From the IMG/VR virus record IMGVR_UViG_3300022822_000008: a stretch of DNA of 64,000 bases. One strand, given 5' to 3'. The notes beneath the pieces were generated by a model. It ran no database searches. It was not told the origin of the DNA and saw only the letters and a program-made list of their open reading frames with translations. This DNA is from a virus (taxonomy: Duplodnaviria > Heunggongvirae > Uroviricota > Caudoviricetes). Of this stretch, positions 5,880 through 62,799 are shown in pieces (position 1 is the stretch's first letter; the number at the start of each line of letters is the position of its first letter). A program made the translations under genes and the position numbers.

Positions 5880-5919
5880 ATAAACAAATAAAGAAATAAT
5901 AGATTGGACAAATGAAATC

Positions 5920-7557: not shown

Positions 7558-7572
7558 GGAAGAGAATTAAAA

Positions 7573-10500
7573 ATGCCTATTAATACAGATCTTAACACAG
7601 CACCATATTTCGACGACTATGACGTTGAAAAGCAATATTACAAGATATTGTTCAAGCCTGGATTCGCTGTGCAAGCAAGAGAAATGACACAGCTACAAAC
7701 GATGCTACAAAATCAAGTCGAGCAATTTGGCGATAATATCTTTAAAGAAGGTAGTATAGTTAAAGGTTGCAACTTTTCTACTCTTGATGGGCTTTCGTTT
7801 GTTAAAGTTGGTGACTTGCTTGGTTTTGATCCAACTTCATATATAAGTCGTAGAGTTACGGAAGAATTCCCAGTGGATTCAGGTATCTTTATTGAAGTGG
7901 ACTATTTGTATGAATTGGAAGGTGATGCAAGTAAAATTAAGGCAAATATCATATCTGCTACCAGAGGTTTTGAAACAAGACCACCTGATCTCAATACGTT
8001 CTTCGTGCATTATATCAACAGTGCTGGTAATTCAGATAAAGTTTTCGCGCCAGGTGAGCAGTTAAATGTCAATCTTTATAAGTTTAAAGTTGGTGATGAA
8101 GCTATAGCAATTTCTCAAGAATTGAACATTGCTCAAATAAATGTGACTACAATTACATCCACACCTGAGCCTCACACAGGTCCTGCATATGGCATTCAAT
8201 CTGCACCTGGTGTTATATTCCAAAAAGGTCATTTTCTCTTTGCTGATGAACAGACTCTTATTGTATCAAAATACACAAACATTCCGAATGATTTATCAGT
8301 TGGTTATAGTGTAAAAGAAACTCTCAAGACATCTTTACAAGACAATAGCTTGTATGATAATGCAAACTCAGCACCAAATCAAAACGCACCTGGTGCAGAT
8401 CGTCTAGAATTAATTCCTATATTAACAGTATTCGAAACTCCGGTTGGTGATGTTGATCCTACATTCTTCGCGCTTATCAGATATCAAAACGGAAACGAAG
8501 TTACCTTACGTGATGTATCACAGTACAATGTTCTTGGCGAAGAAATGGCAAGACGTACTTATGAAGAATCGGGTAATTATATATTAAAAGACTTCAAAGT
8601 AAAAACAGATCGTAGAGATGGTGACGTCCAAGTTCTTGTCGGTACTGGCGCGGCATATGTTAAAGGTTACCGAGTTGAAAATAGTGCCGAACGCGCTTTC
8701 GTAATAGATCAAATCGACCCAACAACAGGTACTGACATACAATCTAGCCAACCAACTACATTTAATTACGGACAATACGTAGATGTAATTAACTTCCAAG
8801 GTATATTAGGATTAAATTCAGAAAGGTTAGACATATTAGCCCCAGACGGTTCAAGCGTTTTAGGAACTTGTTTTGCATCTAATTTAACAGGCGCCGTAGG
8901 AACAGGTATCGGCAAACTATACTTATATGGCGTCAGAATGACAGGTACGAACAGATTCTCTAGTGCTTGGTATATCGACTCGCCAGCAAACGTAGGTAAC
9001 GGCAGAATACAAATTGGTGATGCAAATGTAAATCCAGTATTAAGACAGACAAATAAAGGTCCCCTTGTTTTTGACACAGGAATGTTTAGCCTTAAAGAGA
9101 TTACAGGTACAGTATTGCCTGTAAGAACAGTATCGCAAGCAACTCCAGCTAATGATAACGGAACAGATGTTATTACTATTGCTGATGGAAATGATGAAGA
9201 CTTTGCTCTTGACAATTCTGATATTGTCGTAATTGATGCAACAAGCACTTTCATGGCAGTTTCATCAGTAACAGTTAATTCAGGAACTGGTGATTTAGAA
9301 ATCTCATTAGCGGGTTCTCCAGGCGCTTCCGCAAATCCTGTTACCGTTTATTATAACAAAAACATATTAGGTTCATCTGGTGCTGGTCAAGAACCTTACA
9401 TTAAAGAATCAAGAGATACGTTTGTTAAATTCAGCTACGCTACATCAGAAACTAAATATTCTTTAGGATTTCCTGATGTTTATGAAATAATTAGCATTCT
9501 TGATGTTGACGATAACGAATATTCTAGCAGTTTCAGATTGGTATCAAACCAAAAAGATTTCTACTATGATAGATCTTATGTTGAACATATTCAAGGTCGT
9601 CCTATCCCTCCAGTTGGTGAGTTAAGAGTTGCGTTGAAAGTATACCAACCAAATCCTTCAACAGGGGGTTATTTCTTTAACATTACAAGTTACGATAATG
9701 CTTTGCCAGAAAGTAGCATACCTGTATACACCGCAACAAACGGTGAACAATACAACTTGAGAGAATGTTTCGATTTCAGACCTTATGTAGATAAAGACTC
9801 AGCTGCATCTTATACAGCTGTTGATATAGCTTCAGCACCCAACATATCACAAAGTTTAGGTGTTAATGTAAGTCCCACATTTGCTGATTTAGGCGTAGCG
9901 CTTACTCCTTCTGTTAATCAATCTGCAAGATCTGATTTGGAATACTATCGTACAAGAGTTGATTTAATCATAGCTAATTCATATGGCGAAATTAATTTAA
10001 TCAAAGGTACTGAAGCACAATTTGCGTTGCCGCCTAAAATCGATTCTGACAGCATTGTAATTTCTGAAGTGAAAGTACCTGGCTATCCTGCGTTGTCAAG
10101 TCAAGAAGCTAGTGATCAACAGCGCAGAGAATATGCTGTAAAGGCTCGTCCTGTAGGAACAAAAAATTATACAATGAAAGACATAGGAAGCCTTGAATCA
10201 AAAATTGAGAGATTAGAATATTATGTTTCATTGAGTCAACTGGAATCTGAAACTGCAAACTTAACTGTGCTAGATCAAGATGGACTATCTCGATTCAAAA
10301 ATGGATTCTTAGCAGATCCGTTCAACGATTTGACGCTTGCTAATATTCGCGATCCGCAATTTAATTCTGCTGTTTCATCTAGTAGTAAAAAGTTAACACC
10401 ATCAATAAAAACCTTTCCTATTGATTTAATATATAAAGCGGGTTCAGGCATTTCTGTATTTCCTGCCGCAGACATAAAAGGTAATGTTGCTACTCTATTA

Positions 10501-13080
10501 CGTGATTCTGATGTGAATATAATTAGTCAACCTTTCGCTTCTGAGTTCAGAAACTGCGTTAGTAATTTCTACAAATATAACGGTGAAGGCACTGTGTCGC
10601 CGCCTTATGATGCGTCTTACGATACGACAACTAATCCAGTAACCTTGGATATCGACCTGACCTCAGCGTTTGATGATCTTGTTGATAATTTACAACAGTT
10701 TGTTCCGTTGACTGACATATCAAGAACCACTATAGTGGCAAACGAAACGTGGGATCCCGAAACGTTTCGCGCACGTGGGCGTCCTATCAATGTTGGCGGT
10801 TGGCAACAAACTAGACAAGAACAGACTACTACTCGTAATTTAACAGTCACACCTTCAACTACAGAGAATATGGTAGGCGATTTTGTTACTGATTTTAGAT
10901 TCCAACCTTATATGGCTTCGCGTGACATAAAGGTCTATATGACTGGTCTGCGTCCTAATACAAGACATTATTTCTTCTTTGATGGTGTTGATGTTAATGC
11001 CAACATATACCCAGGCTCGATGGTTAATGATACAAATTTAATTAGCAGATTTGGATTGAAAGGTGCTGAAGTAAAATCTGATTTCAACGGTACCTTAAGA
11101 GTAGTATTTAACATCCCGGCTGAGACATTCTTCGTTGGTGACCGAGTTCTTGATGTAGTTGATGTAGATCAATTTGCTTCAATTGAATCAGCTTCAACTT
11201 CACGTGGTTTTATTACTTATCGTGCATATAGTTTTTCTGTTGAAAAGGCGTCACTGACTACTTCTACACGAGCGCCTGATTTTGATATTGCGGCAACTAC
11301 GACGACTCGTAATTTACCAAGAAGAGCAACTGGAGGACGTGATCCTCTTGCACAGACATTCTTCATTAAGCAAGGTATGGGCGCAGGATCTAATTCTGTG
11401 TTCCTATCAAAAGTTGATGTGTTCTTTAAACGTAAAGCGGAATCTGTAACTTTCCAAGTTCCTGATGGCACTGGCGGATTTGATCCGGTCGTTAACGAAG
11501 GTAATGGCGTTACCGTTATGATTCGCGAAGTGATAAATGGTTATCCATCTAATCAGATTGTTCCTTTTTCTAAAGTGCATTATACTCCCACTCAAGTAAG
11601 TGTGTCTGATAATGCAAGTGTTGCTACAACTTTCACATTCCCTGCTCCTGTTCGCTTAGACGTAGAAAAGGAATACGCAGTAGTCATACAACCTGACGCA
11701 AGTGATCCTAATTATTTAGTGTTTACATCTAAAGTTGGAGGTGTTGATTTGACACCTGGACCTACGAACGGAACCTCTATTGTACAAGATTGGGGTGACG
11801 GTGTTTTATTCACATCAACTAACAATCGTGCATGGAAATCATATCAAGATGAAGATGTCAAATTTAATCTTTATCGCCATGATTTCAATGTCGCTGGCGG
11901 TATTGGTAATGTAACTTTAACTAATAACAGAAATGAATTCTTTACAGTTAATGACATTACTGGTAGATTCCAAGCTGGCGAATTGATTTATCAATTGAAA
12001 GGTGCAGCTGCAAGTGCTGCAATACCATTAAATTCTAACGTCTTATCATTGAACAATGTTTCTACTCTATATAATATAGGCGACGAAATACTAATAAGAG
12101 ATGCTGGACAAACAAGAAAAGATATTTTTAAAATATTAACTTTAAGCACAAATACTGCAATACTAGACAGAACATCTTCATATGATGTTGTTGGTGGTAC
12201 TGGTACGCCTATTGTAACAGGTTCATTATGTTATTACGATAAAAATAACCCAACAGAAATGCACTTGGAATCAAGTACAGCTAAAAGTTCAAGAATATTC
12301 ACAAGCGGGACTATTATAATCGGGCTTGATAGCGGATTCCAAGCTAATTTGATTTCTATTGATAATATACAATTGAGTTATATACAACCTATGATCATGA
12401 AGGCAAATGATTCTGTTTCTGAAACTGCAATGATAGGTTCATTCTTGAATCCTGCTAATAATTCTTATGAACTTGCTATGAAATTTGGCGATAACAATCA
12501 TTTCAATAAAGACGGCGTTTTGTTATACAGCAGATCAAATGATGCATCTGGTACTAGAGATTTTGATATAAATATAAATATGAGTAATGGTTCTAATCGT
12601 ACTTCAACTCCATTTATTGACATTGAATCATCCAAGTTAATTGCTTATCAATATAAAGTAACAAACGATTCCGCAACTACTGGCAAATTCATATCAAAAA
12701 CTATTGAATTGGCAGAAGATTTAGACGCTGAAGATATGAATGTAATTGTAACTGGTTATAGACCTATCAATACTGACATTAAAGTTTATATTAAACCACA
12801 AAATGTTTTCGATAGTGATGATTTTGCTTCTTTGGAATGGATTGAACTTGAGTTATTTGAAGGTACTGGAACATTCTCATCTACTATTAACGTAAATGAT
12901 TATAAAGAATTCAAATATAGAGTTGCTGATGTTGATAAAGTTGATGATGCGGTAACTTACACAAGTACGGCTGGTACCTTTGAAGGATTTAGAAGATTTG
13001 CAATTCGAATTGATATGCTTTCTACAAACATATATAACGTACCTACACTTAAAGATTATCGCGCTATTGCGTTAACATAA
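7573..13080 (+). CDS. large virion structural protein, VrlC/DUF4815-like
   Basis: N-terminal LNTAPYFDDYD...LFKPGFAVQAREMTQLQ, plus APGADRL, ARRTYEESGNY, RFKNGFLADPF, DPLAQTFF and C-terminal DYRAIAL; follows gp8 as in aquatic T4-like phages. Confidence 0.85.
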   Translation: MPINTDLNTAPYFDDYDVEKQYYKILFKPGFAVQAREMTQLQTMLQNQVEQFGDNIFKEGSIVKGCNFSTLDGLSFVKVGDLLGFDPTSYISRRVTEEFPVDSGIFIEVDYLYELEGDASKIKANIISATRGFETRPPDLNTFFVHYINSAGNSDKVFAPGEQLNVNLYKFKVGDEAIAISQELNIAQINVTTITSTPEPHTGPAYGIQSAPGVIFQKGHFLFADEQTLIVSKYTNIPNDLSVGYSVKETLKTSLQDNSLYDNANSAPNQNAPGADRLELIPILTVFETPVGDVDPTFFALIRYQNGNEVTLRDVSQYNVLGEEMARRTYEESGNYILKDFKVKTDRRDGDVQVLVGTGAAYVKGYRVENSAERAFVIDQIDPTTGTDIQSSQPTTFNYGQYVDVINFQGILGLNSERLDILAPDGSSVLGTCFASNLTGAVGTGIGKLYLYGVRMTGTNRFSSAWYIDSPANVGNGRIQIGDANVNPVLRQTNKGPLVFDTGMFSLKEITGTVLPVRTVSQATPANDNGTDVITIADGNDEDFALDNSDIVVIDATSTFMAVSSVTVNSGTGDLEISLAGSPGASANPVTVYYNKNILGSSGAGQEPYIKESRDTFVKFSYATSETKYSLGFPDVYEIISILDVDDNEYSSSFRLVSNQKDFYYDRSYVEHIQGRPIPPVGELRVALKVYQPNPSTGGYFFNITSYDNALPESSIPVYTATNGEQYNLRECFDFRPYVDKDSAASYTAVDIASAPNISQSLGVNVSPTFADLGVALTPSVNQSARSDLEYYRTRVDLIIANSYGEINLIKGTEAQFALPPKIDSDSIVISEVKVPGYPALSSQEASDQQRREYAVKARPVGTKNYTMKDIGSLESKIERLEYYVSLSQLESETANLTVLDQDGLSRFKNGFLADPFNDLTLANIRDPQFNSAVSSSSKKLTPSIKTFPIDLIYKAGSGISVFPAADIKGNVATLLRDSDVNIISQPFASEFRNCVSNFYKYNGEGTVSPPYDASYDTTTNPVTLDIDLTSAFDDLVDNLQQFVPLTDISRTTIVANETWDPETFRARGRPINVGGWQQTRQEQTTTRNLTVTPSTTENMVGDFVTDFRFQPYMASRDIKVYMTGLRPNTRHYFFFDGVDVNANIYPGSMVNDTNLISRFGLKGAEVKSDFNGTLRVVFNIPAETFFVGDRVLDVVDVDQFASIESASTSRGFITYRAYSFSVEKASLTTSTRAPDFDIAATTTTRNLPRRATGGRDPLAQTFFIKQGMGAGSNSVFLSKVDVFFKRKAESVTFQVPDGTGGFDPVVNEGNGVTVMIREVINGYPSNQIVPFSKVHYTPTQVSVSDNASVATTFTFPAPVRLDVEKEYAVVIQPDASDPNYLVFTSKVGGVDLTPGPTNGTSIVQDWGDGVLFTSTNNRAWKSYQDEDVKFNLYRHDFNVAGGIGNVTLTNNRNEFFTVNDITGRFQAGELIYQLKGAAASAAIPLNSNVLSLNNVSTLYNIGDEILIRDAGQTRKDIFKILTLSTNTAILDRTSSYDVVGGTGTPIVTGSLCYYDKNNPTEMHLESSTAKSSRIFTSGTIIIGLDSGFQANLISIDNIQLSYIQPMIMKANDSVSETAMIGSFLNPANNSYELAMKFGDNNHFNKDGVLLYSRSNDASGTRDFDININMSNGSNRTSTPFIDIESSKLIAYQYKVTNDSATTGKFISKTIELAEDLDAEDMNVIVTGYRPINTDIKVYIKPQNVFDSDDFASLEWIELELFEGTGTFSSTINVNDYKEFKYRVADVDKVDDAVTYTSTAGTFEGFRRFAIRIDMLSTNIYNVPTLKDYRAIALT

Positions 13081-13090
13081 AGGCAATATA

Positions 13091-13267
13091 ATGAAAAAAG
13101 ATAATAAATCAGGTGGTGTTCTAAATACTGATAAAGACGCGTTGCTGAGATACAAACGCGAAAAATTAGTAGAAAAGAAAATAACACAACTTCAGAATCA
13201 TATTGCTGAACTTAAAAATTCATTAATTGGTATGGATAAACGACTAGACAAATTAGAGCAGAGATAA
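13091..13267 (+). CDS. 58-aa coiled-coil protein (not in the ORF track)
   Basis: Manually translated as MKKDNKSGGVLNTDKDALLRYKREKLVEKKITQLQNHIAELKNSLIGMDKRLDKLEQR; AAGG RBS; fills the gap between its neighbours. Confidence 0.8.
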   Translation: MKKDNKSGGVLNTDKDALLRYKREKLVEKKITQLQNHIAELKNSLIGMDKRLDKLEQR

Positions 13268-13270
13268 TAT

Positions 13271-14293
13271 ATGGCAAAGCCAAGTATAACTATTATAAAC
13301 AACACAGATACTTTTCAAAATTGGATAAACAAAACCAATGAGATGGTTAACATATTTAAAGACGAAGCGTTAACTGCGTCGGGTGGTGTTGGTGATACTA
13401 CAACCGGTAATGCTACTCTCATAGGTGATTTTACAGTAAATAATCTTACTGCCGTCGAAGTAGTTAACGCTAATACATTATCATCAGCTGGAAATGCGCA
13501 GATTAGTGTTGACACTCCTCTTTTAATTGAAACCTCTGGTCAAGTTGGTGCAATCTTCAACAACGCAGCTGGAGGAAGAAATCAATTCGTATCAAATACC
13601 TTAACATGGGATGTTGGTATCCATAATGACACCAACAATAACTTTGTTTTGAATACAGGATCTGGAGATTTTAAATTTATATTATCACCGTCAGGTGAGT
13701 TAACGATTCCAAGTCTTGTTGTATCGGGTTCGGTAACAGCGGATCTTGGTTTAACAACTGCTGATGTAGAAGAAGATGCAGCTGCATTATATTTTACAGA
13801 CGCATTAGCGCAAGACGCTTTCATAGCAGGTGACGATGTAACATTTAGTGCACCAGATGCAAATGGGAAAAGAACAATAAGCGCTTCGTCAAGTGATGCT
13901 GACACCGTAGGTGGAATATCACCAGACTCATTTTTAAGGTCTGATCAAAGCGATACAATGACAGGCAATCTTACCGTAACAGGAGACATCACTTCAAACG
14001 GATCTGCATCTGATATTTCATTAAAAGAAAATATACAAGTTATAGAGGACGCTGGATATAAAGTTTCACAACTAAATGGATACACGTTTAATTATAAAGA
14101 TTCTCCAGACGAAGCTATGACGGGTGTTTTGGCTCATGAATTGGAAGCCGTATTACCAGAGGCTGTTTATGTTTATGATGTAGATTATTATGGGCGGGAA
14201 ATTAAAGCTGTTCGTTACGGAAACGTAGTAGGTCTGTTAATCGAAGCAATAAAAGACCTTCAAGAAAGATTAGATGAATTAGAAAAGTCATAA
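13271..14293 (+). CDS. short tail fibre/spike protein with C-terminal peptidase S74 intramolecular chaperone
   Basis: N-terminal DTFQNWINKTN attachment-type motif; DADTVGG..FLRSD fibre motif; SDISLKENI...GVLAHELE...LLIEAIKDL S74 signature. Confidence 0.8.
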   Translation: MAKPSITIINNTDTFQNWINKTNEMVNIFKDEALTASGGVGDTTTGNATLIGDFTVNNLTAVEVVNANTLSSAGNAQISVDTPLLIETSGQVGAIFNNAAGGRNQFVSNTLTWDVGIHNDTNNNFVLNTGSGDFKFILSPSGELTIPSLVVSGSVTADLGLTTADVEEDAAALYFTDALAQDAFIAGDDVTFSAPDANGKRTISASSSDADTVGGISPDSFLRSDQSDTMTGNLTVTGDITSNGSASDISLKENIQVIEDAGYKVSQLNGYTFNYKDSPDEAMTGVLAHELEAVLPEAVYVYDVDYYGREIKAVRYGNVVGLLIEAIKDLQERLDELEKS

Positions 14294-14357
14294 ATAGATG
14301 TAAATGATTGAAGGACATTTAGTCTCGATCTAATAATTATAAGGAAAGGTAAACCGA

Positions 14358-17300
14358 ATGTCTAAGATTACAGAATTAGGCCCAATTACCGGTTCAAACA
14401 CGAGACCAGAAGATCTATTTGTCGTCGTAAACCTAGTACAAGGTGACGATGGAACAAAGAATATTACTCGTAGAGAACTTGTACAAGCAATACAATTTGA
14501 AGATTTCAACAGAATAAGTATAACTGGCGGAAGCATTGAAAATGTTGAAATATCTTCATCTGATTTCAACGATGGTACTATATTAAATACATCTGCTACA
14601 AACCTTGAGATGACTGAATCAGTATTCGATCTTGGTGATATTACAAATTCAGATTTTAGTTCTGGTCAGCTTGATGATGTTGATGGCGACGATGTTAGAC
14701 TAGTAAATTCTACAGTTGATGATTCAACACTTGACAATGTTATCGTGACAAATGCTTCGGTTGCTGATTCGGCAATTAGCACATCAGCAATTGAATTATC
14801 TGAATTTAATAACGGCATCGGAATACTTAACGAATTTACAGACACAATTCTTGACTCTGGTACAATTGAAAACTTTGATATAGCTAACACAAGTTTCTCA
14901 GAAGGTACCATATCAAACTCCTCAGCAAATGACATAATCTTAACTAACTCAAAAGCGTCTAATACTGAAATAACAGATTCTACTTTCTCTGAAGGTATTA
15001 TAAAATCTTCAGAACTTGTTGATTTTGATATGAACCTTGAAAATTCATTCGAGCCGAACCTTGATGAAAACTCATATTTTGCTTTAAAGAATGCAAAGAC
15101 GGGTGAAACCGAACAAATTACATATAAGCAGTTCTTTGATGAAATTTCAAAAACAACAGAATCAGCATTAACAGTTTATGTATCTACATCTGGTGATGAT
15201 ACTTATCCAGGTACAATATTACAACCAGTCAGAACTCTAAAGCGTGCTGGAGAAATAGCACTAGAAAAGGCTGGAGGTAGTTATGATCGTAATGATATTA
15301 ACAATGCTATTCATATATCAGTTGGGCCCGGTACTTATTACTTAAGGGAATCTGTTCCTATCCCAGATGATTGTGCTATAACTTCGTCATCTGGCCAATA
15401 CGCAACTGTTATTGAAATGGAAAAAGGTTATGAAAAAACAAACGGAATCTTAGTAGGTTCTGGTTGTTATGTTCAAGGTTTTGGATTTCAAAACTTCGAA
15501 ATTGATAACTTTGACTATCCTGAAAGAGGATTTGCTGTTGCATATAGACCTGGGGCGCTTCTTAGAAGATCCCCATATATGCGTGATTCGTCGCAATTAT
15601 CAAACTTTAAAAGAGCTGACGTTGAGCCGCCGTTACAACCTTTCAATAGTAAGGGTACAGTGGCTGACTTAGGAAATATGTTAACTCTTGATGGTGCGTA
15701 TAGTGGGTCGTTTGAGGTTGATGATGAGGTAACATTCTCTTCCGGTGCATTTGGCTATATTAGTCGAATAGACGAACTTATTGCAGATAATGTCATTTAT
15801 ATAAGAAATCTTAGGGGTAATGTAAACGCAGGTGACTTAATACTTACTAATTTCGGGGCCAGCGGAGTCGTGTTAGAACTCGGCGAAGAAGACTTCCCTA
15901 ATAAACTTGTAGGACGCGGCGGCGGTGTTGTTCTTGCGGATAGAAGACAACTTGATCCTGACAGCTTATATTCTTACTTCTTGTGTTTTGGTGCGACTCC
16001 TCGTACGCAGAACGGCATGGGTTATGTCGCAAGAGACGGTGCTGGTGTTAACGGTATTGGTTCTTTATCAATTTTTGTTCGTTGTGCGTTTTATGCTCTA
16101 AACGGCGGACAGATGACATTGAACAACTCAGGTACTCAATTCGGTGATATCTCAATGCGAGCGAAAGGTTCGACTGAAGTATACCAACCTAAAACTACTA
16201 ATGTTGAAGTGGTACAAAATACTACTTTTGCAGATAATATTGAAGCGAACAAAGACGATATTATAGATGACTTGATAGAATATTTAGATAAAGACCTAGG
16301 TTATACTGGATACAGCGCTGAGAAATGTGAAAGAGACACCGGTATAATAGTTAATAATCTAGGTTATGATATTGCATTGGATACTAACTACTGGGGACGA
16401 TTAAACGGTATCTCATATCGTAGTCCTATTTCATATACAGTTGTTAACGAACAATTAACAGAAACGACTGCGGCGATAAATCATCTCGAAACACAGATAA
16501 CTAACATATTTCAAAATGCAGATGCAGAAATAAATTCTCGCTCTAGCAGATCATTTACAGAAATGCTAAACGTATTAAATAACGGAGAAGGTTCTGCCAG
16601 TCCAATAATATTTACAGACACAGGCGATATAGCTAAAACTGCAGCGCGTACATTGATACAGGATAATAAAGCTCTTATTGCAGGTGAGTTAATAGATTGG
16701 ATTGAGAATAATGAAAACTTTTTTGCTTACAACAGCATAAAGTGTCGTCGAGATACTACTGATTACATCTTACCTGCTGTTAAATATGATGTATTGCTAG
16801 AAACAAACTACAATTCAATCACAGCTGGTAATGCTTATTATATGGCAACTGCTTCTAAAGTTATAGGTTCACAGAAAAATGAGACTGTAGGTGCTTATAA
16901 AAGACTTAAGGATCAAACTAACGAAGTACTCGATGCAACTGGTTCTTTCATTGCTGCGGATCGTGCTGATGATGCCTTTGATAATATCATTAATGCATTG
17001 GAAGTAGGCCCAACTAATGAAATAACCTTTAGCGATAATGTTGGCATTAACGTAGATCAACTAAACGCTCGTCGTCAGATACAAACGAATAAGATACACA
17101 TTCAAGATACTGTTATTGACTATATTAATTCTACTTATTTCATATATGACTCGAAAACGTGTGCTAGAGATGTTGGTGATTATATATTGCCTGCAGTACA
17201 GCGCGATCTTTTATTGGGAACAAATTTTAACGCTATTCAATCAGGTGTTGCTTATTATGCGGCAACTGCAAATCAAGTTATAACTGAAGAATTGCCACAA

Positions 17301-20300
17301 ACCATAGCGGCAGTTACCGAATTGAAAAGCTTGGTAGGAACTATCGTTGCTGCAGACACTCCTTCGTTAAATAGAACTGATGCTTCATTTGATGAGTTAA
17401 TTGATATAATGACAAACGGAACTACGGCCGCTGATGCGATAACTTGGTCTGATCCTGCTCTTATAAGCGTCACTGTAAACGGTCAGTTTGCTCGTGAAAG
17501 ACTACAAACAAACAGATTGTTTATTCAACAAGAAAACATTGCATGGCTTGAGGATAATTATCCAGAATTGGTTTATGATTCTGCACTATGTCAGCGTGAT
17601 GTTGGATATGTTATTGATGCTATATCTAAAGACCTTGAATACAGCGGAAATGCCAACACAGTAAAAGCTATTGAATATTACTTTACTAATGCAATAAACA
17701 TATTACCTGCTGACCAAAGAGATCCTACAAAAGAATCGTTCAGACATTTAGCTACTGTGGTACAAGACGTTATAGTCAATACCACTGTTGTTCCTGTTTC
17801 TGCAATATCTGAATCTCAAGACTTAGGTGGAACTCCATCAGCTGGTGCTGTTTCAATTGATGCAAGTAACCTTGTTTTATTAATTGCAAACACAGTTGAC
17901 GATACTGATCTGGTACTTCCTACTCTTGTGAATAATATTGCAGACTCAAACAGGACTTTCGCTCGTAAAATATTACAAAACAATAAATCATTTTTACAAG
18001 AAGAAGTAATAAAATATCTTGAAGATAGGTTTTTCACCTTCAACGGAGAGAAATGTAGTAGAGATATCGGACATATTCTTGATGCTGTTAAGCGCGATAT
18101 GCTGACTGGTTCTAATTTCAATTCTATATTTGCAGGTTTAGCATATCGCTCAGGTACTGTAGGTTCCAACCTTGTAATTGATGAGCAATTGACTGAAACA
18201 GCAAATGCTATTGAGTTTGTAAGAGACAATGTAACAAGTACAATCACAGATTTATCTGCGAGAACAAGAGCGACAAATGCTTTTAATGAGTTAATACAAA
18301 TAATGACTCTAGGTAGTAGCAATGCTGACTTGATTCAATATGGTACATCATCTGTGAGTGGAAATTCTTTAAACGGCCAAACACAACTACAAAGAAATAA
18401 AGAATTCTTACAGGCAGAAGCGATTGCATTTATAACTCAGACTTATCCTTCGCTGTCGTATGATTCTGCAAAGTGTTCAAGAGATGTGGGTTATTTAATT
18501 GATTCAGTTTCATTTGATATTCAACATGGTAGCAATACTGCGTCTATCAAAAATGCAATTATCTATTTCGAAAATGCAGTAAGTGTTCTACCTTTAGATC
18601 AAAGAGCACCAACAGCTGCTACTTTTGCTCATATAGCATCTGTTGCTAATTTAGTAGTACAAGAAACGATAGTAAGTCCTACATCAGGAAATTCTGTAGT
18701 GCAAGACACTGCTGCAGGTTCAGCAGGTGCTGTAATCGGTACCCAAGTAGAATTATTGGTGAATATAGTTTCTGATGCAGTAACGGCTGGTGATTTAAAT
18801 TCACTACCTTCTGTTATTGAACCTTCTGCGGTTTATGATGCTAATTATGTTAATGCTGTGTCTGAAATAAATGCAATAACTGAATCTCAAAAAACAGATG
18901 TTATAACATATATCAGTAATAATTTCAACGGCCTTGCGTATGATGAAGCCAAATGCAGACGTGATGTTGGATTTATTGTCGATGCTTTGTCTCACGATGT
19001 TCAGTATAACGGAAATGCAACTATCTTAAATTCAGCGCGAATTTATTTTAAAAACGGATTAAATGTTCTTCCATTAACACAGCGTGAACCTACGAAGCTT
19101 GCATTAACAAGACTAGCTAAAGTTGCTTCAGAAGTTGTATTCAATGTTACTGTTGATGTATCAAAAGGCAATGAAGTCGCTCAGGACATATCAGAAATTG
19201 CTACTAATCCAGATATCGCAAAAATAACAAAAGATCTTGCATTAATAGTCGCTAACATAACTGATGACGCTACTGATATCAACTTGCCTATAAGAATAGA
19301 CCCTGCTGTAACGTGGGTATCTCCTAACTATATAGAAAATAAAGAACTCATTGAAGACGATGTTAGTTCCTTGATTCAATCAGTTATTGATTATATTGCA
19401 ACTTCACAAAATGGACTATCATATCCAGAGAATAGATGTAGACGCGATTTAGGATTTATCATTGATGCAGTATCTCATGATGTTCAGTATGACGGAAATA
19501 CAGCTACTAAAATTGTTTCTCAGATATATTTTGAAAATGGGATAAGCGTTTTACCTCAAGCTACGATAACTCAAACAGCTGATATATATGCTTATTTAGG
19601 TGGAGTATTATCTGACGTAATTGTAGAAGATAATGTCGGTCAAGACGTATCTGGAACTCCAGGTACTGCAACGGAAAGTTCTACTGTTATAAGTTTAGTG
19701 CAAATAATCGAAAATGTGATAAGAGCTAATTCTTTGGCAGCAATACCAGCGACAGTAGAACCAACTACTGCTTGGATTGATGCTGATCTTGTTACAGCTA
19801 CGAATGCTATCGACACGAATACAACTGAACTTGCAGACGATATGATCGAATGGATTAATACAGAATATAAAGTTCTTGACTATGATAAAGATAAATGTGC
19901 TAGAGATTCGATATATTTAATCGACGCCTTTAGTTTTGATTTAAATTATGGCGGTAATACAGCATCTAGATGGAATGCTGATTTTTACTTCTGGAATAAT
20001 ATATTGAGAATACCTGAAGGCCAACGTGAAGCAACTGCGTTATCATATAGACAACTCGGTAAAATATGTGCTGATGTCGTTATAGGCAAAAATGCAAATC
20101 AAACTACGAATAGTGAACTTGCAACATTGGTTGAATCTGTAAAAGTTCAAGACCTTGCTAATATATTTTATGAGACTTTAATAAATAGTGATGTTAAAAA
20201 ATTATCATTACTTGAGGAACCTGATTACACTTGGCAAGAAAATCAATTTATAGGCCCTAAAACTATACTTGATGCTAGAAAATCTGCATTGGCAGAAGAA

Positions 20301-21182
20301 GTTGTAAGATTCGTGAATGCTGAATTTAGGTTTTACGATGTTGCATTAACGAGACGTGATGCTGGTAATTTGATTACGACACTTGCAAACGACTTTAGAG
20401 TAGATAATCCAGTCTTTAATACATTTGGTTCACAGAAGGCCACAAGAACGTTTGCTGCTGGTTTTTTTGGCTATGATGGTACTCATGTTTTCCCAGTGTT
20501 CAATCCTGAAAAATCAGGCCTTAAATTTATGGGAAGCGTAGAAGGTACTGGTGGTCTGCCAACGTCGGATCGAAAAGCAAATCACGCTTATATTGTAGTT
20601 GATGTTAATGGATTAAATACCAACTTCTATGATGGTTTAATATATTATTGGGATCAAGATCCTGCTGGCGATGGTTCGCAACCTGCAAACTGGGTCTTGG
20701 ATGGGCCAAACAACACCGAACTTCTTGAAGCGTTTTACCTATCATGGAAAAGAATGCAACAATTTATGGAAGAAAATTATCTTGGTAGTTTAACTGGGTC
20801 TCCTGACTCTGCAAGTATAAATATGTTATCGGGGTTAGTTGATGATGTTTTAGTTGCTGGATTATTGACTCCATCGCTATTGACATTCGGAAGTCTTGTT
20901 GAATCTATTGCTCACCAGTTTAACGGAGCATCTGCGGGTGTAAACAGAACTGCATTGCCTTTAAACTTTAGAAACATAGGTCAACCAATATCTGCATCAG
21001 CTTCAGTATTATCGGAAGATGGAGGACGGGTAAGATGGTCGGGTTCAGATGAATTAAACAACCAATACTTTGCTCGTGGGTTGAAAATAAACGGACGAAC
21101 AGGCCGAATTGAAGGTAGACCATTTACATCATCTGTACGAAAACTTGCAAGACGTGCTGCAAATAGCAGAGCAAATATATAA
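14358..21182 (+). CDS. giant virion structural protein (2274 aa): Ser/Asp/Thr-rich solenoid, pectin-lyase-like beta-helix region, and ten tandem helical C-x-R-D repeats
   Basis: YVSTSGDD.YPG....PVRTLKRA beta-helix cap motif; ten repeats of the form Y-x3-4-C-x-R-D-x-G-x3-D-A; located in the fibre module. Confidence 0.8.
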   Translation: MSKITELGPITGSNTRPEDLFVVVNLVQGDDGTKNITRRELVQAIQFEDFNRISITGGSIENVEISSSDFNDGTILNTSATNLEMTESVFDLGDITNSDFSSGQLDDVDGDDVRLVNSTVDDSTLDNVIVTNASVADSAISTSAIELSEFNNGIGILNEFTDTILDSGTIENFDIANTSFSEGTISNSSANDIILTNSKASNTEITDSTFSEGIIKSSELVDFDMNLENSFEPNLDENSYFALKNAKTGETEQITYKQFFDEISKTTESALTVYVSTSGDDTYPGTILQPVRTLKRAGEIALEKAGGSYDRNDINNAIHISVGPGTYYLRESVPIPDDCAITSSSGQYATVIEMEKGYEKTNGILVGSGCYVQGFGFQNFEIDNFDYPERGFAVAYRPGALLRRSPYMRDSSQLSNFKRADVEPPLQPFNSKGTVADLGNMLTLDGAYSGSFEVDDEVTFSSGAFGYISRIDELIADNVIYIRNLRGNVNAGDLILTNFGASGVVLELGEEDFPNKLVGRGGGVVLADRRQLDPDSLYSYFLCFGATPRTQNGMGYVARDGAGVNGIGSLSIFVRCAFYALNGGQMTLNNSGTQFGDISMRAKGSTEVYQPKTTNVEVVQNTTFADNIEANKDDIIDDLIEYLDKDLGYTGYSAEKCERDTGIIVNNLGYDIALDTNYWGRLNGISYRSPISYTVVNEQLTETTAAINHLETQITNIFQNADAEINSRSSRSFTEMLNVLNNGEGSASPIIFTDTGDIAKTAARTLIQDNKALIAGELIDWIENNENFFAYNSIKCRRDTTDYILPAVKYDVLLETNYNSITAGNAYYMATASKVIGSQKNETVGAYKRLKDQTNEVLDATGSFIAADRADDAFDNIINALEVGPTNEITFSDNVGINVDQLNARRQIQTNKIHIQDTVIDYINSTYFIYDSKTCARDVGDYILPAVQRDLLLGTNFNAIQSGVAYYAATANQVITEELPQTIAAVTELKSLVGTIVAADTPSLNRTDASFDELIDIMTNGTTAADAITWSDPALISVTVNGQFARERLQTNRLFIQQENIAWLEDNYPELVYDSALCQRDVGYVIDAISKDLEYSGNANTVKAIEYYFTNAINILPADQRDPTKESFRHLATVVQDVIVNTTVVPVSAISESQDLGGTPSAGAVSIDASNLVLLIANTVDDTDLVLPTLVNNIADSNRTFARKILQNNKSFLQEEVIKYLEDRFFTFNGEKCSRDIGHILDAVKRDMLTGSNFNSIFAGLAYRSGTVGSNLVIDEQLTETANAIEFVRDNVTSTITDLSARTRATNAFNELIQIMTLGSSNADLIQYGTSSVSGNSLNGQTQLQRNKEFLQAEAIAFITQTYPSLSYDSAKCSRDVGYLIDSVSFDIQHGSNTASIKNAIIYFENAVSVLPLDQRAPTAATFAHIASVANLVVQETIVSPTSGNSVVQDTAAGSAGAVIGTQVELLVNIVSDAVTAGDLNSLPSVIEPSAVYDANYVNAVSEINAITESQKTDVITYISNNFNGLAYDEAKCRRDVGFIVDALSHDVQYNGNATILNSARIYFKNGLNVLPLTQREPTKLALTRLAKVASEVVFNVTVDVSKGNEVAQDISEIATNPDIAKITKDLALIVANITDDATDINLPIRIDPAVTWVSPNYIENKELIEDDVSSLIQSVIDYIATSQNGLSYPENRCRRDLGFIIDAVSHDVQYDGNTATKIVSQIYFENGISVLPQATITQTADIYAYLGGVLSDVIVEDNVGQDVSGTPGTATESSTVISLVQIIENVIRANSLAAIPATVEPTTAWIDADLVTATNAIDTNTTELADDMIEWINTEYKVLDYDKDKCARDSIYLIDAFSFDLNYGGNTASRWNADFYFWNNILRIPEGQREATALSYRQLGKICADVVIGKNANQTTNSELATLVESVKVQDLANIFYETLINSDVKKLSLLEEPDYTWQENQFIGPKTILDARKSALAEEVVRFVNAEFRFYDVALTRRDAGNLITTLANDFRVDNPVFNTFGSQKATRTFAAGFFGYDGTHVFPVFNPEKSGLKFMGSVEGTGGLPTSDRKANHAYIVVDVNGLNTNFYDGLIYYWDQDPAGDGSQPANWVLDGPNNTELLEAFYLSWKRMQQFMEENYLGSLTGSPDSASINMLSGLVDDVLVAGLLTPSLLTFGSLVESIAHQFNGASAGVNRTALPLNFRNIGQPISASASVLSEDGGRVRWSGSDELNNQYFARGLKINGRTGRIEGRPFTSSVRKLARRAANSRANI
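16220..20860 (+). repeat. ten tandem 139-161 aa helical protein repeats with a C-x-R-D motif (phycobiliprotein-like)
   Basis: Cys codons at 16326, 16743, 17160, 17589, 18054, 18474, 18954, 19437 and 19896; the tenth copy has Thr at 20349. Confidence 0.9.
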
Positions 21183-21199: not shown

Positions 21200-21637
21200 A
21201 TGCCACAACCAATTATAATTACTACTTCACAGGCGCCTGACGCGAAACCAGTCGTCGCAAATGTGATGGTGACTACAACAGAAAAAGTATTAATATCAGT
21301 CCCACAATATGAAGTACCAGAATTAGTCTTTGGCGGTTCTACAGTGATTGAAGATGGCGTCGGTGAAGTTATAAGCCCACTTATATTATGCAATGTTACC
21401 GCAGCAACAGCAACTGTTGATGTTCGAGCAGAAAGATGGATTTCAAACGGATTCGGCAATACTAGTTTCTACTTCGTAAGACAACTTAAAATACCAGCAT
21501 ATGAAACATTAGCATTACCGCTAAACGGTCAATTTTTCAAATCAGGAGATGAGTTGAGGATAAGTTGCAATACAGATTTTGCAATTAATGCTACAATTTC
21601 ATTCACGTTAGGTCAGTCGGAGGAAAATGATGTTTAA
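21200..21637 (+). CDS. 145-aa beta-rich structural/adaptor protein
   Basis: Lies between two giant fibre genes and its stop overlaps the next start; paralogous to the C-terminal domain of 54301..56655. Confidence 0.75.
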
Positions 21638-24600
21638 AACCTTAAGTGGTAAAAGCACAACCTTAGGACACGGTATACCTCAGGTATTTCCCATTCAATT
21701 GGATCCATCGCCATATGAAGGTGCTTTGGTCTATGCCGACGACGGGACACTAAAATATTCGAATGGTACTTCTTGGGTTGATATAAGTGGAAATGGCTCA
21801 GGAGGCGGTGCTGGAGTACAAGGAATACAAGGTGTTGAAGGTGTGCAAGGTGGTTATGGAGCTGGATTTACTATAATTGGTTCTTTATCTGATGTGAATG
21901 CAGGTGGTACTGCTCAATCAAACCTGAATAGTGCTTTTCCTAGTGCTGAATTAGGTGAAGGCGTCATCGATGATCTACTAGATGAATTGTGGATTTATGA
22001 CGGTTCTGTTTGGGTTAATATTGGTAGCTTTCGTGGCGTTCAAGGTGTTCAAGGTGTTCAAGGTCTGCAGGGGGTTCAAGGTGTAACTGGTTTCACAGGT
22101 ATTCAAGGTGAACGTGGTGTTATAGGATTCCAAGGCATCCAAGGCGTTCGAGGTTCTCAAGGCATTCAAGGTGATTTAGGATTTCAAGGTACTCAAGGAA
22201 CTAAAGGAACTCAAGGAGTACAAGGATTCATAGGACTTCAAGGTGATTTTGGTTTGCAAGGCTTTATAGGAGTCAATGCTGGAATTTCAGTATCTTATAA
22301 TTTCAACACTTCATCGATTGCAGACACAGATCCAGGCGACGGATCGTTCCACTTCAATAGATCATTTTCCGAAGCTACAAACGGTAATGATGGTGCTTGG
22401 ACTATTCATATAGACGATCTTGATAATGCAAATAATGATATGCAAAAGTTATTTAGAGCATTAAATGCATCGACTAGTCTTAATAAAGGTTATGTCAAAT
22501 TTACATCAACCCAAAATCCAACAATATTTGCAATTTTCTCGTTTCAAGGTATCACTGAAGAACTTGGCTATTTTACTTTCAATGCTGAATATATCGAACA
22601 TAATACAACAGAACCATATTTTACAAACAATCCTAATAACTGGGTAGTCTCATTTGTTGAAAGTGGAGACCAAGGAATTCAAGGCGTCCAAGGTGTTCAA
22701 GGAACTACAGGTGTACAGGGAACTCAAGGCGTCCAAGGAACTCAAGGAGTTCAAGGCGTTCAAGGCATTCAAGGACCTCAAGGTGTACAGGGTAATCAAG
22801 GAGTTCAAGGTGTTCAGGGATCTCAAGGTGTACAGGGTAATCAAGGCGTTCAAGGCGATTTTGGTGTTCAGGGCGTTCAAGGTGTTCAGGGAGTTCAGGG
22901 TGTCCAAGGTGAGATTGGAGTTCAAGGTGATTTTGGAATTCAGGGCGTTCAAGGTGTTCAGGGTGTCCAAGGTGTTCAAGGTGAGATTGGCATTCAAGGA
23001 GATTTCGGTGTTCAAGGAATTCAAGGTGTTCAAGGAATACAGGGTGCTCAAGGTGTGCAAGGTATCCAAGGAGATTTCGGCGTTCAAGGCGTTCAAGGTG
23101 TTCAAGGAAATCAAGGTACCCAAGGAATTCAAGGCGTTCAAGGCCAAAGAGGTACAGACGGCGGCGCGCGTAACTACGAAGTAACTAACGATCTTTCGGA
23201 TTCATATATCATCGACGGCGTTTCTAATAATCCAAATGTAAGATTATTAAGAGGTTTTGCTTATCAGTTTACTGTAAATGCAATAGGACATCCATTCTTT
23301 ATAAAAACTAACACATCATCTGGAACAAACAATCAATATAATGATGGCGTTACTAATAACGGTGAAGATTCAGGTGTAATATTATTTGAAGTTCCTATTG
23401 ATGCACCAGACTTTTTATATTATAATTGTTCTAATCACTCATCAATGAACGGTATTATTGAAATTTATGATTTGGGTCCTCAAGGTGTTCAAGGAATTCA
23501 AGGCACCCAAGGAGTTCAAGGTGATTTAGGATTGACAGGCTCCTTTGGTGGTGTTTCATTTAATTATATATACAGTTCATCTACTGTAGCTAGTGATCCA
23601 GGCGTAGGTAATTTTAGATTAAATAACATAAACTTTTCAAGTGCTACTACGATGTTTATAGATGATCGTGATGTTGGATTTGTAGACCTCCAATCATTTT
23701 TCAGAACATTGGATGATTCGTCAAGTACAGTAAAAGGTCATGTAAAAATAACCGAAAACGGAAATCCTGCTAATTTTTCATTATTTGAAATGACAGGTTC
23801 TTTAGAATCTAGCGGTTTCTTTATATTCGACATATCATATTTGAGCGGTGATACTTCCTTAAGTAATGGATTAGACACTATAATAACATTTTCCAGAACT
23901 GGGGATATCGGATTACAGGGTATTCAAGGAGTTCAAGGCGTACAAGGTGTCCAAGGCATTCAAGGCGATTTTGGATTGCAAGGTTCAACTGGTGCTGGAT
24001 TACAAGGTGTTCAAGGTGTTCAAGGTATTGAAGGTAACGGAATACAAGGTCCAAACGGCCCACAAGGAATACAAGGCGTTCAAGGAGAAATAGGAGTACA
24101 AGGAGATGAGGGCTTTGGTGTTCAAGGTCCTGCAGGTGCTGGATTTCAAGGCGTTCAGGGTGTTCAAGGTGATTTAGGCGGTGCTGGATTACAAGGTGAT
24201 GTAGGTGGTGCCGGAATTCAAGGCGTTCAAGGCGTTCAAGGTGATTTTGGTATTCAAGGTGATATTGGTATTCAAGGTGTCGATGGAGCAGAAGGTTTTG
24301 GACAACCTGGCATACAAGGAACTCAAGGGACTCAAGGTGTGCAGGGTGATGAAGGACTTCAAGGAGAAATTGGTACCGGACTGCAAGGCGTAGAAGGCAT
24401 TCAAGGTGATTTAGGATTTCAAGGTGTTCAAGGAGCGCAGGGTTTCGGAGGTGATGCTGGCGGCCAAGGTATTCAAGGCGATTTCGGTGTCCAAGGTATT
24501 CAAGGTATTCAAGGTCAAATTGGAGCTGTTTCCGCTCAAGGTATTCAAGGCGTTCAAGGTGGATTTGGTTTACAAGGTTCTGATGGTGTTGGTGAACAAG

Positions 24601-25829
24601 GCATACAAGGAAGTATAGGTACCCAAGGCATTCAAGGAAATGTCGGCGCTGGCGAAAACGGTATTCAAGGTGTGCAAGGTGTACAAGGTGATATTGGTGT
24701 ACAAGGTGATATTGGTATCGGTGAAGGTGGAATTCAAGGAGCTCAGGGGGTTCAGGGAACTTTCGGAATACAAGGAGATACTGGAGAAGGAAATCAAGGT
24801 GTGCAAGGTGTGCAAGGTGAGATTGGAATACAAGGTCAAGAAGGATTTCAAGGCATACAAGGAATTTCAGGTCCTGATGGATTCCAAGGTACATCAGGCG
24901 CAGATGCATTTCAAGGTGTGCAAGGTACAATAGGATTTCAAGGTGTTCAGGGTACAATCGGAGAATCAATACAAGGTAATACAGGCGCAGGCATTCAAGG
25001 TGTGCAAGGCGTTCAAGGTGTTCAAGGAGATTTAGGATTTCAAGGTACAGCTGGTGATGCAGGTACTGCTGAGGGTGTTGAGTGGATTAACTTATATGAG
25101 ACTGGAATACAAGCTACTGAGTTACTAGTTCCTATAATCGACGGCAATCAAACAATTTCTCCTATATATGGAACAGGAGGACCTAACCCATTTGGTTCTG
25201 GATTTAAAAACTTAACGTTTGAACCTAGTCTTAGTAGAATGACTATGGAAAATCTTACCTTGGGCGGAAATTTAGTAGTTGAACCTGGAGGTACCATAAC
25301 AGGAACGCTGGTGAATGAATTTATTAATGCAACAAACACATCTATTAAGACTGCAGGCACAATAAGACTTAATGATGGCGTTTCATTATATTTCGGTAAC
25401 GGACAGGATGGACAAATACGAAGTGATGGTGTAAATTTACTTGTGAATAATCCGGTCGGAAGTGATACTTTGTTTACCGAAAATGGTTCTGTTAAATACA
25501 CGTTTGAAATGAGTAATGGTGATTTCACAGCTGCGGGTGATGTAACTTCAAATTCTGATTTAAGATTAAAAACAAATATTATTGATATAGATAAGGCACT
25601 GGAACAAGTACTGAAAATGCGCGGCGTTTATTATACTATGAAATCAAATCCGTCGAACAGAAAAATAGGATTGATTGCTCAAGAAGTAGAAAATATTGTA
25701 CCAGAACTTGTCATTGAAGATAATTCTGATGAAAAAATTAAGAGTGTTGCATATGGAAACATAACTGCATTATTAATTGAAGCGATAAAAGAACTTCAAG
25801 GACAAATAGATGATTTGAAAGGAGGTTAA
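21627..25829 (+). CDS. collagen-like (Gly-X-Gln) fibre protein with cupredoxin-like domain and S74 chaperone
   Basis: Long (G-X-Q)n tracts; GHPF...[13 protein letters not shown] domain; SDLRLKTNI...GLIAQEVE...[10 protein letters not shown]74 signature; GGAGG RBS. Confidence 0.88.
22034..25070 (+). repeat. coding 9-bp periodic repeats (CAAGGN-NNN) of collagen triplets, in four blocks
   Basis: Blocks at about 22034-22270, 22668-23160, 23474-23545 and 23900-25070, separated by globular domains. Confidence 0.92.
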
Positions 25830-30866: not shown

Positions 30867-30904
30867 GAATTTTAAAATATGCCTGACTGGGGAGAGTGAA
30901 CCGA

Positions 30905-40312: not shown

Positions 40313-40681
40313 ATGAAATTTGAATATAAGTGGGAAGTAACAGGAATAAAATGTATTGATAAAGAGAACCATGAAGGTATTACCTTACTAAATTCTGTCT
40401 GTCAAACATACTGGAAACTAACAGGAATAGATTCTGAAGGTAATGAAGGTAGCTTTTCTGGTGCGACTCCATTTTGTGCTAGTAAATGTAAATCTGAAAA
40501 ATATTGCGAGTTCAGTGAATTAACTGAGGCTGTGGTTCTTAGTTGGATTCAAGATGTAGTAGCTAATGATGCTTCCTATAAAGAACATATCGATGCACAA
40601 ATACAAAAAACAATCGACGCAACCAAAATCACCGAACCTTCTTTGCCTTGGGCTCCCGTCGATGAAGAACCTGCTGAATAA
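40313..40681 (+). CDS. small fibre-associated protein (possible assembly chaperone)
   Basis: Y.W...G...F.ELTE..V..WI...I..QI...PW pattern; directly follows the fibre gene. Confidence 0.65.
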   Translation: MKFEYKWEVTGIKCIDKENHEGITLLNSVCQTYWKLTGIDSEGNEGSFSGATPFCASKCKSEKYCEFSELTEAVVLSWIQDVVANDASYKEHIDAQIQKTIDATKITEPSLPWAPVDEEPAE

Positions 40682-40692
40682 GGATAAATGCT

Positions 40693-62770: not shown

Positions 62771-62799
62771 ATTATAACATAGACTCACTGTTCTGTCAA
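62771..62799 (-). promoter_or_regulatory. sigma70-type early promoter
   Basis: TTGACA-N17-TATAAT, perfect consensus with an extended TG; overlaps the end of the upstream gene. Confidence 0.85.

Follow-up and report, generated by a model that had tools for sequence, protein, structure and literature searches.

Phycobiliproteins (PF00502), including CpcA/B, CpeA/B, and ApcA/B, are free alpha and beta subunits having the globin-like core helices A–H and, where helix E begins, a C-x-R-D (CXRD) motif. ApcE (PDB 4xxi), the core-membrane linker and a large multidomain protein of the phycobilisome, has a single domain of the phycobiliprotein type with REP linker domains behind it, and needs no lyase for bilin attachment. 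The phycobiliprotein CXRD site is known so far from light harvesting and, later, from the BBAGs of heterotrophs. CXRD is the chromophore-binding motif of phycobiliproteins and of BBAG-1 and BBAG-3 (Rockwell et al., 2023, PMC10151467). The present analysis concerns P0001, a predicted fibre-like virion protein of 2274 amino acids (aa) encoded at 14358..21182 on the plus strand of IMG/VR virus record IMGVR_UViG_3300022822_000008, a stretch of 64,000 nucleotides (the window, to which all positions refer unless another genome is named). P0001 has ten tandem repeats, nine of which carry C-x-R-D. No paper describing tandem phycobiliprotein-like arrays in phage tail appendages was found in the literature searched, which was incomplete.

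P0001 joins ten domains in one fibre polypeptide, unlike the free subunits of phycobiliproteins, and the tandem arrays in a phage appendage likewise set the repeats apart from the single domain of ApcE. BBAG-1 and BBAG-3 are non-light-harvesting phycobiliprotein paralogues, some having CXRD, that self-assemble with several bilins (PMC10151467); BBAGs are known from heterotrophs and need no lyase to attach bilins (PMC10151467). Their occurrence in non-photosynthetic bacteria would fit a phage clade lacking psbA and hli, as described below for the relatives of the window phage. BBAGs differ in being single-domain proteins clustered with genes for haem oxygenase (HO), ferredoxin-dependent bilin reductase (FDBR), Fe-S, and V4R proteins, none of which is among the open reading frames (ORFs) scanned in the window. 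Photoglobins or photocobilins (PDB 8j2w) also have a bilin-binding globin domain (structural Z score 11 to the phage repeat), but with CXQD or other motifs, fusion to a B12 domain, and a role in signalling (PMC10151467), whereas the phage repeats keep CXRD.

The same repeat family is found in giant fibres of cyanomyoviruses, including S-PM2 p091, a second S-PM2 ORF of 3779 aa (165928–177267 of that genome), ORFs of about 4450 aa in P-HM1 and P-HM2, and "tail fiber" proteins of S-H9-1, S-WAM2, and ACG-2014e. These genes share the neighbourhood of P0001, after a VrlC-like gene, and a DUF1565-like beta-helix precedes the repeats in one of the S-PM2 repeat proteins, as read by eye from its N-terminal sequence. 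Outside the repeats they are not orthologous to P0001, the S-PM2 proteins have 3–5 CxRD copies against nine in P0001, and the window phage belongs to a separate, psbA-less lineage.

The repeat array and its relation to phycobiliproteins

The C-x-R-D motifs of P0001 stand at aa 657, 796, 935, 1078, 1233, 1373, 1533, 1694, and 1847, followed by T-R-R-D at aa 1998, and the spacing of all ten is 139–161 aa. In the alignment of the ten repeats, R, D, and a second D 11 residues on are invariant, and C, Y, N, Y, and T nearly so. A hidden Markov model (HMM) of the repeat family matches repeats 1–9 at E 1e-30 to 1e-44 and repeat 10 at 5e-9; translated in all six frames, the window has no further match. 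The tandem array is thus confirmed as real and is far beyond chance. The original prediction, made from the letters of the window, had counted ten repeats of this spacing, nine with Cys and all with R-D, and the motif positions and the HMM agree. All peptides that it quoted are found in translated P0001, and the span that it gave (16220–20860) is close to the HMM span of 16167–20396, or to ~20620 with the poorly matching remainder of repeat 10.

In order along the plus strand, the family HMM places repeat 1 at 16167..16619 (Cys657, codon 16326, KCERD; E 2e-30), repeat 2 at 16557..17024 (Cys796, codon 16743, KCRRD; E 4e-40), repeat 3 at 17022..17456 (Cys935, codon 17160, TCARD; E 1e-38), repeat 4 at 17454..17930 (Cys1078, codon 17589, LCQRD; E 1e-37), and repeat 5 at 17871..18341 (Cys1233, codon 18054, KCSRD; E 6e-38). 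These are followed by repeat 6, the repeat chosen for modelling, at 18282..18791 (Cys1373, codon 18474; E 2e-43), repeat 7, part of a two-repeat model, at 18756..19274 (Cys1533, codon 18954; E 8e-41), repeat 8 at 19236..19736 (Cys1694, codon 19437, RCRRD; E 2e-39), and repeat 9 at 19692..20195 (Cys1847, codon 19896, KCARD; E 6e-44). Repeat 10 (20175..20396; E 5e-9) is degenerate, has Thr1998 in place of Cys (LTRRD), and is matched by the profile in helices A–E alone (HMM positions 9–85).

For comparison with known folds, 1604 repeats were collected from 150 representative relatives, and an alignment of 141 sequences headed by repeat 6 (A2) was prepared. The AlphaFold2 model of repeat 6, calculated from phage repeats alone and without templates, is all-alpha with six core helices, A, B, E, F', F/G, and H (predicted local distance difference test, pLDDT, 94.7; predicted template modelling score, pTM, 0.83) and has the Cys at the fourth turn-start of the long central helix. 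In a Foldseek search of the PDB, the top 50 rows were all phycobiliproteins (E 6e-3 to 8e-2, template modelling score 0.5–0.67), namely phycoerythrin, phycocyanin, allophycocyanin, and cryptophyte beta chains at probability 1.0. VIA-align, an all-against-all method independent of Foldseek, gave phycobiliproteins or the ApcE bilin domain at ranks 1–8 (Z 11.5–14.8), with Z 13.5 and a root-mean-square deviation of 2.1 Å over 117 residues for ApcE (4xxi_A); below these ranks came photocobilin (Z 11), globin-coupled sensors (Z ~10), and haemoglobins (Z ~6). A structure search of the ESM Atlas returned weak, unrelated rows only. The globin fold nearest to phycobiliproteins that had been anticipated from the letters is therefore recovered by both aligners; a fold of another kind had been named as grounds for abandoning the idea, and the modelled fold is globin-like and lies nearest the bilin-binding branch. 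The more cautious form of the prediction, that the domain is structurally related to phycobiliproteins, stands regardless.

The sequence comparison points the same way. Searched against all PDB sequences, the 141-sequence profile had 22 matches at E <= 10, of which 20 were phycocyanin alpha (best E 0.007). In these alignments K-C-x-R-D-x-G-Y of the repeat falls on K83-C84-x-R86-D87-x-G-Y of phycocyanin alpha and the GG turn on G102-G103, the full pattern being Y-D...q-a-K-C-e-R-D-v-G-y-I-i-d-A-v-a-y-D-l-l-y-G-G on Y-D..-K-A-K-C84-x-R86-D87-x-G-Y-Y-L-R...G102-G103. Profile comparison by hhalign with CpcA, from a Pseudanabaena plasmid gene, gave 88% probability over helix E, and comparison with a single CpcB 12.7%. 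Most of the sequence signal lies within helix E, where hhalign covers 22–26 columns; HMMER alignments reach back over helices A–B. In the reciprocal direction, Pfam PF00502 scored 30 bits, summed per frame, on the repeat ORFs of S-PM2 (cut-off 22.2), and PF00502 is carried by 55% of the members of an ESM Atlas viral cluster whose N-terminal region is similar. The equation of C-x-R-D with the bilin-attachment motif, as put forward in the original prediction, is thus supported by the register on Cys84, Arg86, and Asp87 in both the profile search and hhalign, and applies to nine of the ten repeats.

Besides the core and the motif, the phage repeats and phycobiliproteins, their best structural and sequence matches, share a G-Y behind the motif as well as the GG turn. 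They differ in several respects. The phage repeats seem to have no clear X-Y hairpin for alpha-beta pairing; at its place the model has a single helix (residues 2–14) ahead of the core, and most structural alignments begin at model residue ~28, corresponding to phycobiliprotein residue ~32. The B-E loop is shorter, phycocyanin alpha having an insertion of 8–14 residues there in the HMM alignments, in agreement with the early remark that the SPGGNAY loop is missing. The second Asp, the Tyr, and the Thr are additional invariant residues of the phage repeats, and long repeats have a non-helical insert of 20–25 residues before helix H. In the two-repeat model (pLDDT 90.4, pTM 0.61) a linker of 17 residues has lower confidence, which suggests that the repeats may be arranged as beads on a semi-flexible string.

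Because the fold ranking, the profile register, and the reciprocal PF00502 match agree, the repeats are very probably true, if distant, homologues of bilin-binding globins, that is of phycobiliproteins and their BBAG relatives. The likeness could instead be convergent, or a chance match of a helical bundle and a short motif, and the modest Foldseek E values (6e-3 at best), the high background Z of helical folds in VIA-align, and the marginal sequence E of 0.007 would all allow it. Such an origin is nevertheless highly improbable, considering that phycobiliproteins alone top two different aligners, that nearly all profile matches are phycocyanin alpha with the motif in register (with 88% from hhalign), and that PF00502 in turn matches the relatives.

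Conservation of the putative chromophore site

Over the 1604 repeats, the Cys is kept in 93%, the Arg in 95%, the Asp in 98%, and the second Asp in 98%, together with a Tyr at Cys+30 (96%) and a Thr at Cys+46 (86%); the mean column identity of A2 is ~18%. In counts made without phylogenetic correction on 1498 Cys-bearing and 86 Cys-less repeats, the Arg is present in 97.8 and 59%, respectively, the Asp in 100 and 77%, the Tyr in 99.3 and 58%, and the Thr in 88.9 and 43%, whereas the second Asp (99.7 and 96.5%) and the Asn (80 and 74%) hold. Since these last two hold, the drop in the Cys-less repeats concerns the site specifically. The five site residues (Cys, Arg, Asp, Tyr, Thr) are kept or lost together, and therefore appear to form one unit, apart from general structural constraint. 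Such behaviour is as expected for a ligand site, and would not be predicted for an inert spacer.

Clustered at 50% identity, the repeat family numbers at least 1,349 groups, and single proteins hold up to 36 copies of the repeat. By tblastn against 50,697 deposited phage genomes, it is found in 72 cyanomyovirus records only, and matches in BFVD are cyanophage "tail" or "structural" proteins and proteins of uncultured Caudovirales. It had been suggested that the same repeats exist unannotated in aquatic T4-like phages, and they are indeed present in the "tail fiber" and "structural" proteins of relatives, these labels, like "virion structural protein", being database annotations. A 400-aa piece used as a query found no related loci, and a degenerate DNA motif was used instead. 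In 185,579 cellular genomes the motif had 61 matches, 45 of them chance and 16 true; all 16 are on contigs of metagenome-assembled genomes (MAGs) of mixed phyla, and none is in an isolate. The MAG contigs are probably mis-binned phage DNA and uninformative on the host. PBPT01000016.1, a 335-kb contig in a Neomarinimicrobiota MAG bin, has an open frame of 2536 aa with five repeats; it may represent a jumbo phage or a prophage, or may have been placed in the wrong bin. In IMG/VR, all 80 of the motif matches listed are true repeats, and the CheckV completeness values imply that many of the carriers may be jumbo phages of ~350 kb. Taken over these databases, the comparisons show a very large, apparently phage-specific repeat family in which the site residues co-vary as a unit.

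Possible roles of the array: bilins, light, and alternatives

In the proposed mechanism, each domain would take up a linear tetrapyrrole inside the infected cell. The Cys would form a thioether to ring A, with the propionates and the pyrrole nitrogens held by the Arg and Asp. Attachment could be self-catalysed, as in BBAG-1/3 and ApcE, or aided by a lyase, which might be the phage CpeT where present. The released virion would then have a pigmented appendage. The most plausible use of the pigment would be light sensing that gates adsorption; stabilisation or photoprotection would be weaker alternatives. In P0001 the whole site, made up of the CXRD residues Cys, Arg, and Asp with the co-conserved Tyr and Thr, is present in nine domains. 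These nine Cys repeats may bind a linear tetrapyrrole, the chances for and against being evenly balanced.

Light is known to affect adsorption of several cyanophages. In darkness P-SSM2 still adsorbs, but P-HM1 and P-HM2 fail to (PMC6628666). Adsorption of S-PM2 also depends on light, without requiring photosynthesis by the host, an effect attributed to host receptors, tail fibres, or both (PMC6628666). Repeat matches number nine in S-PM2, four in P-HM2, four in P-HM1, and none in P-SSM2, which has neither repeats nor cpeT, and this pattern fits a fibre-borne light sensor. In P-HM2 (locus 82700–84200 of that genome), two repeats with C-x-R-D are found in the ORF of 4458 aa; a second giant ORF (3682 aa) has repeats without C-x-R-D, so that Cys-bearing and Cys-less versions occur in one phage. 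That the pigment serves light sensing, the site binding a linear tetrapyrrole, would stand at about even odds. A wider extrapolation is more doubtful: many aquatic T4-like and jumbo virions, of cyanophages or of other phages, might have fibres with covalent bilins (tens to hundreds per particle) acting as photoreceptors that gate adsorption, and phage hemO, pebS/pcyX/pcyA, and cpeT might serve partly for virion pigment, not host photosynthesis.

Genes for bilin supply accompany the repeats in some phages. S-PM2, P-HM2, and P-HM1 have both the repeats and cpeT, and P-HM1/2 also hemO and FDBR. In S-PM2 (NC_006820), cpeT lies 1.4 kb upstream, on the same strand, of the 3779-aa repeat-bearing "short tail fiber" gene. 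In this locus (3953–17268) a 2OG-Fe(II) oxygenase gene lies between the two, and a block of tRNA features inside the 3779-aa ORF in the RefSeq entry looks like an annotation shift. Genome G028 (328 kb, 92% complete), without psbA and hli, has the repeats and a hemO-FDBR cassette. Cassettes of hemO-pcyX have been described from uncultured marine phages, their function being unknown, and on why phages of non-phototrophs carry them the authors "can only speculate" (PMC11480375).

Two relatives of the window phage were compared with it. The first, G002 (major capsid protein, MCP, identity 80%; 194.6 kb, complete with terminal repeats), has no psbA/psbD, hli, or cpeT, but adjacent hemO and FDBR genes, and of the repeats the Cys-less tenth only. 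Its cassette is more than 110 kb away from the P0001 orthologue, and at 11767–14856 genes for a pstS-like phosphate-binding protein, a porin-like ORF, haem oxygenase, and FDBR stand in a row just upstream of gp59/gp32, an arrangement resembling the hemO-pcyX cassettes just mentioned. The second, G003 (MCP 78%; 119 kb, 56% complete), has no psbA/psbD, hli, or cpeT and no hemO-FDBR in the fragment, and carries 13 repeats in one ORF of 3765 aa. S-PM2 and a complete, psbA-bearing genome, G030, served as positive controls in the search for hli. Because the clade is without psbA and hli, the window phage and its relatives probably do not infect cyanobacteria.

The P0001 orthologue of G002 is an ORF of 763 aa (127624–129912, minus strand), syntenic with P0001 and just downstream of an 1805-aa ORF (131224–136638) that is taken as the VrlC homologue by its size and position. 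It matches P0001 at aa 1–65 (74% identity), 224–650 (52%), and 1997–2272 (57.6%), and it keeps repeat 10, also with T-R-R-D, but has none of the nine Cys repeats. From these matches the N-terminus, the beta-helix, the tenth repeat, and the C-terminal domain are a conserved frame, and the pentapeptide stretch and the nine Cys repeats of P0001 appear as an insertion or expansion here or a deletion in G002. The two repeat proteins of S-PM2 have in common with P0001 only the repeats and one short C-terminal motif. Judged by such comparisons, the repeat is seemingly a mobile shaft module, its copy number free to vary between relatives.

A number of observations weigh against a pigmented array. The correlation of repeats with light-dependent adsorption covers three independent lineages only, and to our knowledge no pigmented cyanophage preparation has been reported. 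Pfam PF00502 has no match at E <= 1 on P0001 itself, that is, it is below the curated cut-off. No hemO, FDBR, or lyase gene is among the window ORFs scanned, which agrees with what had been noted from the letters about bilin lyase and synthesis genes, and since the clade has neither psbA nor hli a cyanobacterial bilin supply is not to be assumed. G002, complete and with hemO and FDBR, has the orthologue without the nine Cys repeats, and P-SSM2 has hemO and FDBR without repeats. Conversely, in G030 repeats are present but hemO, FDBR, and cpeT were not found, although its host makes bilins, and no bilin genes were found in four psbA-less, repeat-bearing contigs (G003, G027, and G039, estimated as 51–56% complete; G035, 34% complete). 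None of five FDBR-bearing fragments has repeats. Co-occurrence is therefore mixed; it goes both ways, most contigs being fragments, and bilin genes are neither necessary nor sufficient companions of the repeats.

The main rival to tetrapyrrole binding is a pigment-free spacer, in which phycobiliprotein-like domains would have been recruited as rigid helical units setting the length of the fibre, and Cys, Arg, Asp, Tyr, and Thr would form a polar network inside the domain, or a contact between domains or chains, free of ligand. A length module would explain why nine Cys repeats in one phage correspond to none in a relative (MCP identity 80%) although both ends of the protein are conserved, and why other family members hold up to ~36 repeats. 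The inconsistent co-occurrence with bilin genes, their lack among the window ORFs scanned, the clade without cyanophage signature genes, and well-folded domains with a lower-confidence linker in the two-repeat model (pTM 0.61) are likewise in its favour. Against these stands the site itself, since a free Cys in 93–95% and Arg-Asp in 95–100% at ~20–25% overall identity are rare for structural repeats, and five site residues decay jointly on loss of the Cys when other conserved positions do not. Moreover, conservation falls on precisely the residues by which phycobiliproteins hold their chromophore (PMC10151467), and these are dispensable for the globin fold. A ligand-free spacer is on this account possible but rather unlikely.

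The same coupling shows function but does not single out a ligand, and the site might serve haem or another cyclic tetrapyrrole, a metal, a host-surface molecule, or a redox or cross-linking Cys. The repeats belong to the globin superfamily, in which haem-binding globin-coupled sensors come next after the bilin-binding members (Z ~10), and in a probably non-cyanobacterial host haem or biliverdin would be easier to obtain than phycocyanobilin or phycoerythrobilin. However, the conserved columns have no invariant residue resembling a proximal His, the Arg-Asp beside the Cys is a bilin motif and not a haem or metal motif (PMC10151467), and one Cys per repeat, nine in P0001, is contrary to regular disulphide pairing. 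A non-bilin function of the site is thus unlikely.

If the repeats bind bilin and the fibre is pigmented, this would be the first case of a virus particle with a photoreceptor-like cofactor site. It would become testable how S-PM2 and P-HM1/2 adsorb in light alone, independently of host photosynthesis (PMC6628666), what the T-type lyase CpeT does for phages, and why hemO-pcyX is carried by phages of non-phototrophs (PMC11480375). If the fibre is pigment-free, a light-harvesting fold would have been turned into a fibre building block. In either case, the repeats represent a widespread new domain family.

Organization of P0001 and its neighbourhood

P0001 is a single ORF, assigned as a fibre-like protein by its gene neighbours and by matches to the PHROG tail-fibre families phrog_4527 (E 5e-63) and phrog_5342 (E 4e-52); Pfam gives a weak pentapeptide match alone. 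All of its parts are on the plus strand. The N-terminal ~65 aa (14358..14552), having 74% identity to the N-terminus of the 763-aa G002 orthologue, are a probable attachment module. A pentapeptide-repeat-like region follows at aa ~66–260 (14553..15137), with a sub-cut-off match to Pfam PF13599 and a match to phrog_15350 at aa 67–262, and is missing from the G002 orthologue in the alignment. Residues 262–625 (15141..16232) are assigned as a putative right-handed beta-helix of the DUF1565 type, the nearest ESM Atlas cluster for this region being DUF1565 (score 0.93). Behind the repeats, the C-terminal domain of 185 aa (aa ~2090–2274; 20625..21182) has counterparts in the G002 orthologue and in S-PM2 p091, where it matches an internal segment at 40%; it has no Pfam match, and an Atlas feature search with the C-terminal 215 aa gave none.

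The window as a whole is a T4-like structural module. It includes genes for gp25, gp6/7/8-like wedge proteins, an 1835-aa VrlC-like protein, and fibres, as well as for neck proteins, gp15, terminase, sheath, tube, portal, and MCP. The P0001 gene lies between the baseplate-wedge and VrlC-like genes upstream and other fibre genes downstream, and this gene order shows P0001 to be a predicted fibre of the baseplate cluster in an uncultured T4-like aquatic phage. In MCP, portal, and VrlC, the window phage is slightly closer to Sinorhizobium phiM12-type phages than to cyanophages. As a guide to the host, similarity of MCP, portal, VrlC, and fibre tip was indecisive, the phiM12-type phages being best (69, 52, and 31%) and the cyanophages slightly lower.

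Directly downstream of P0001, after an ORF of 145 aa, a gene for a collagen-like fibre of 1400 aa (21627–25829) has many PHROG collagen and tail-fibre matches, and the GC skew is unusually strong (0.32) at 24–26 kb. An ORF of 3127 aa with a GTG start (30896–40279) has a tail-fibre match in its C-terminal ~120–220 aa alone; the rest of it has no family match and no phycobiliprotein-like repeat. Two neighbouring small paralogous genes at 40313–41022 each have a match to DUF7936. The gene at 62091–62546, beside the head genes, encodes a response-regulator receiver domain standing alone (Pfam PF00072, 31.6 bits) and is followed, on the opposite strand, by that of a denV-like pyrimidine-dimer glycosylase at 62785–63357.

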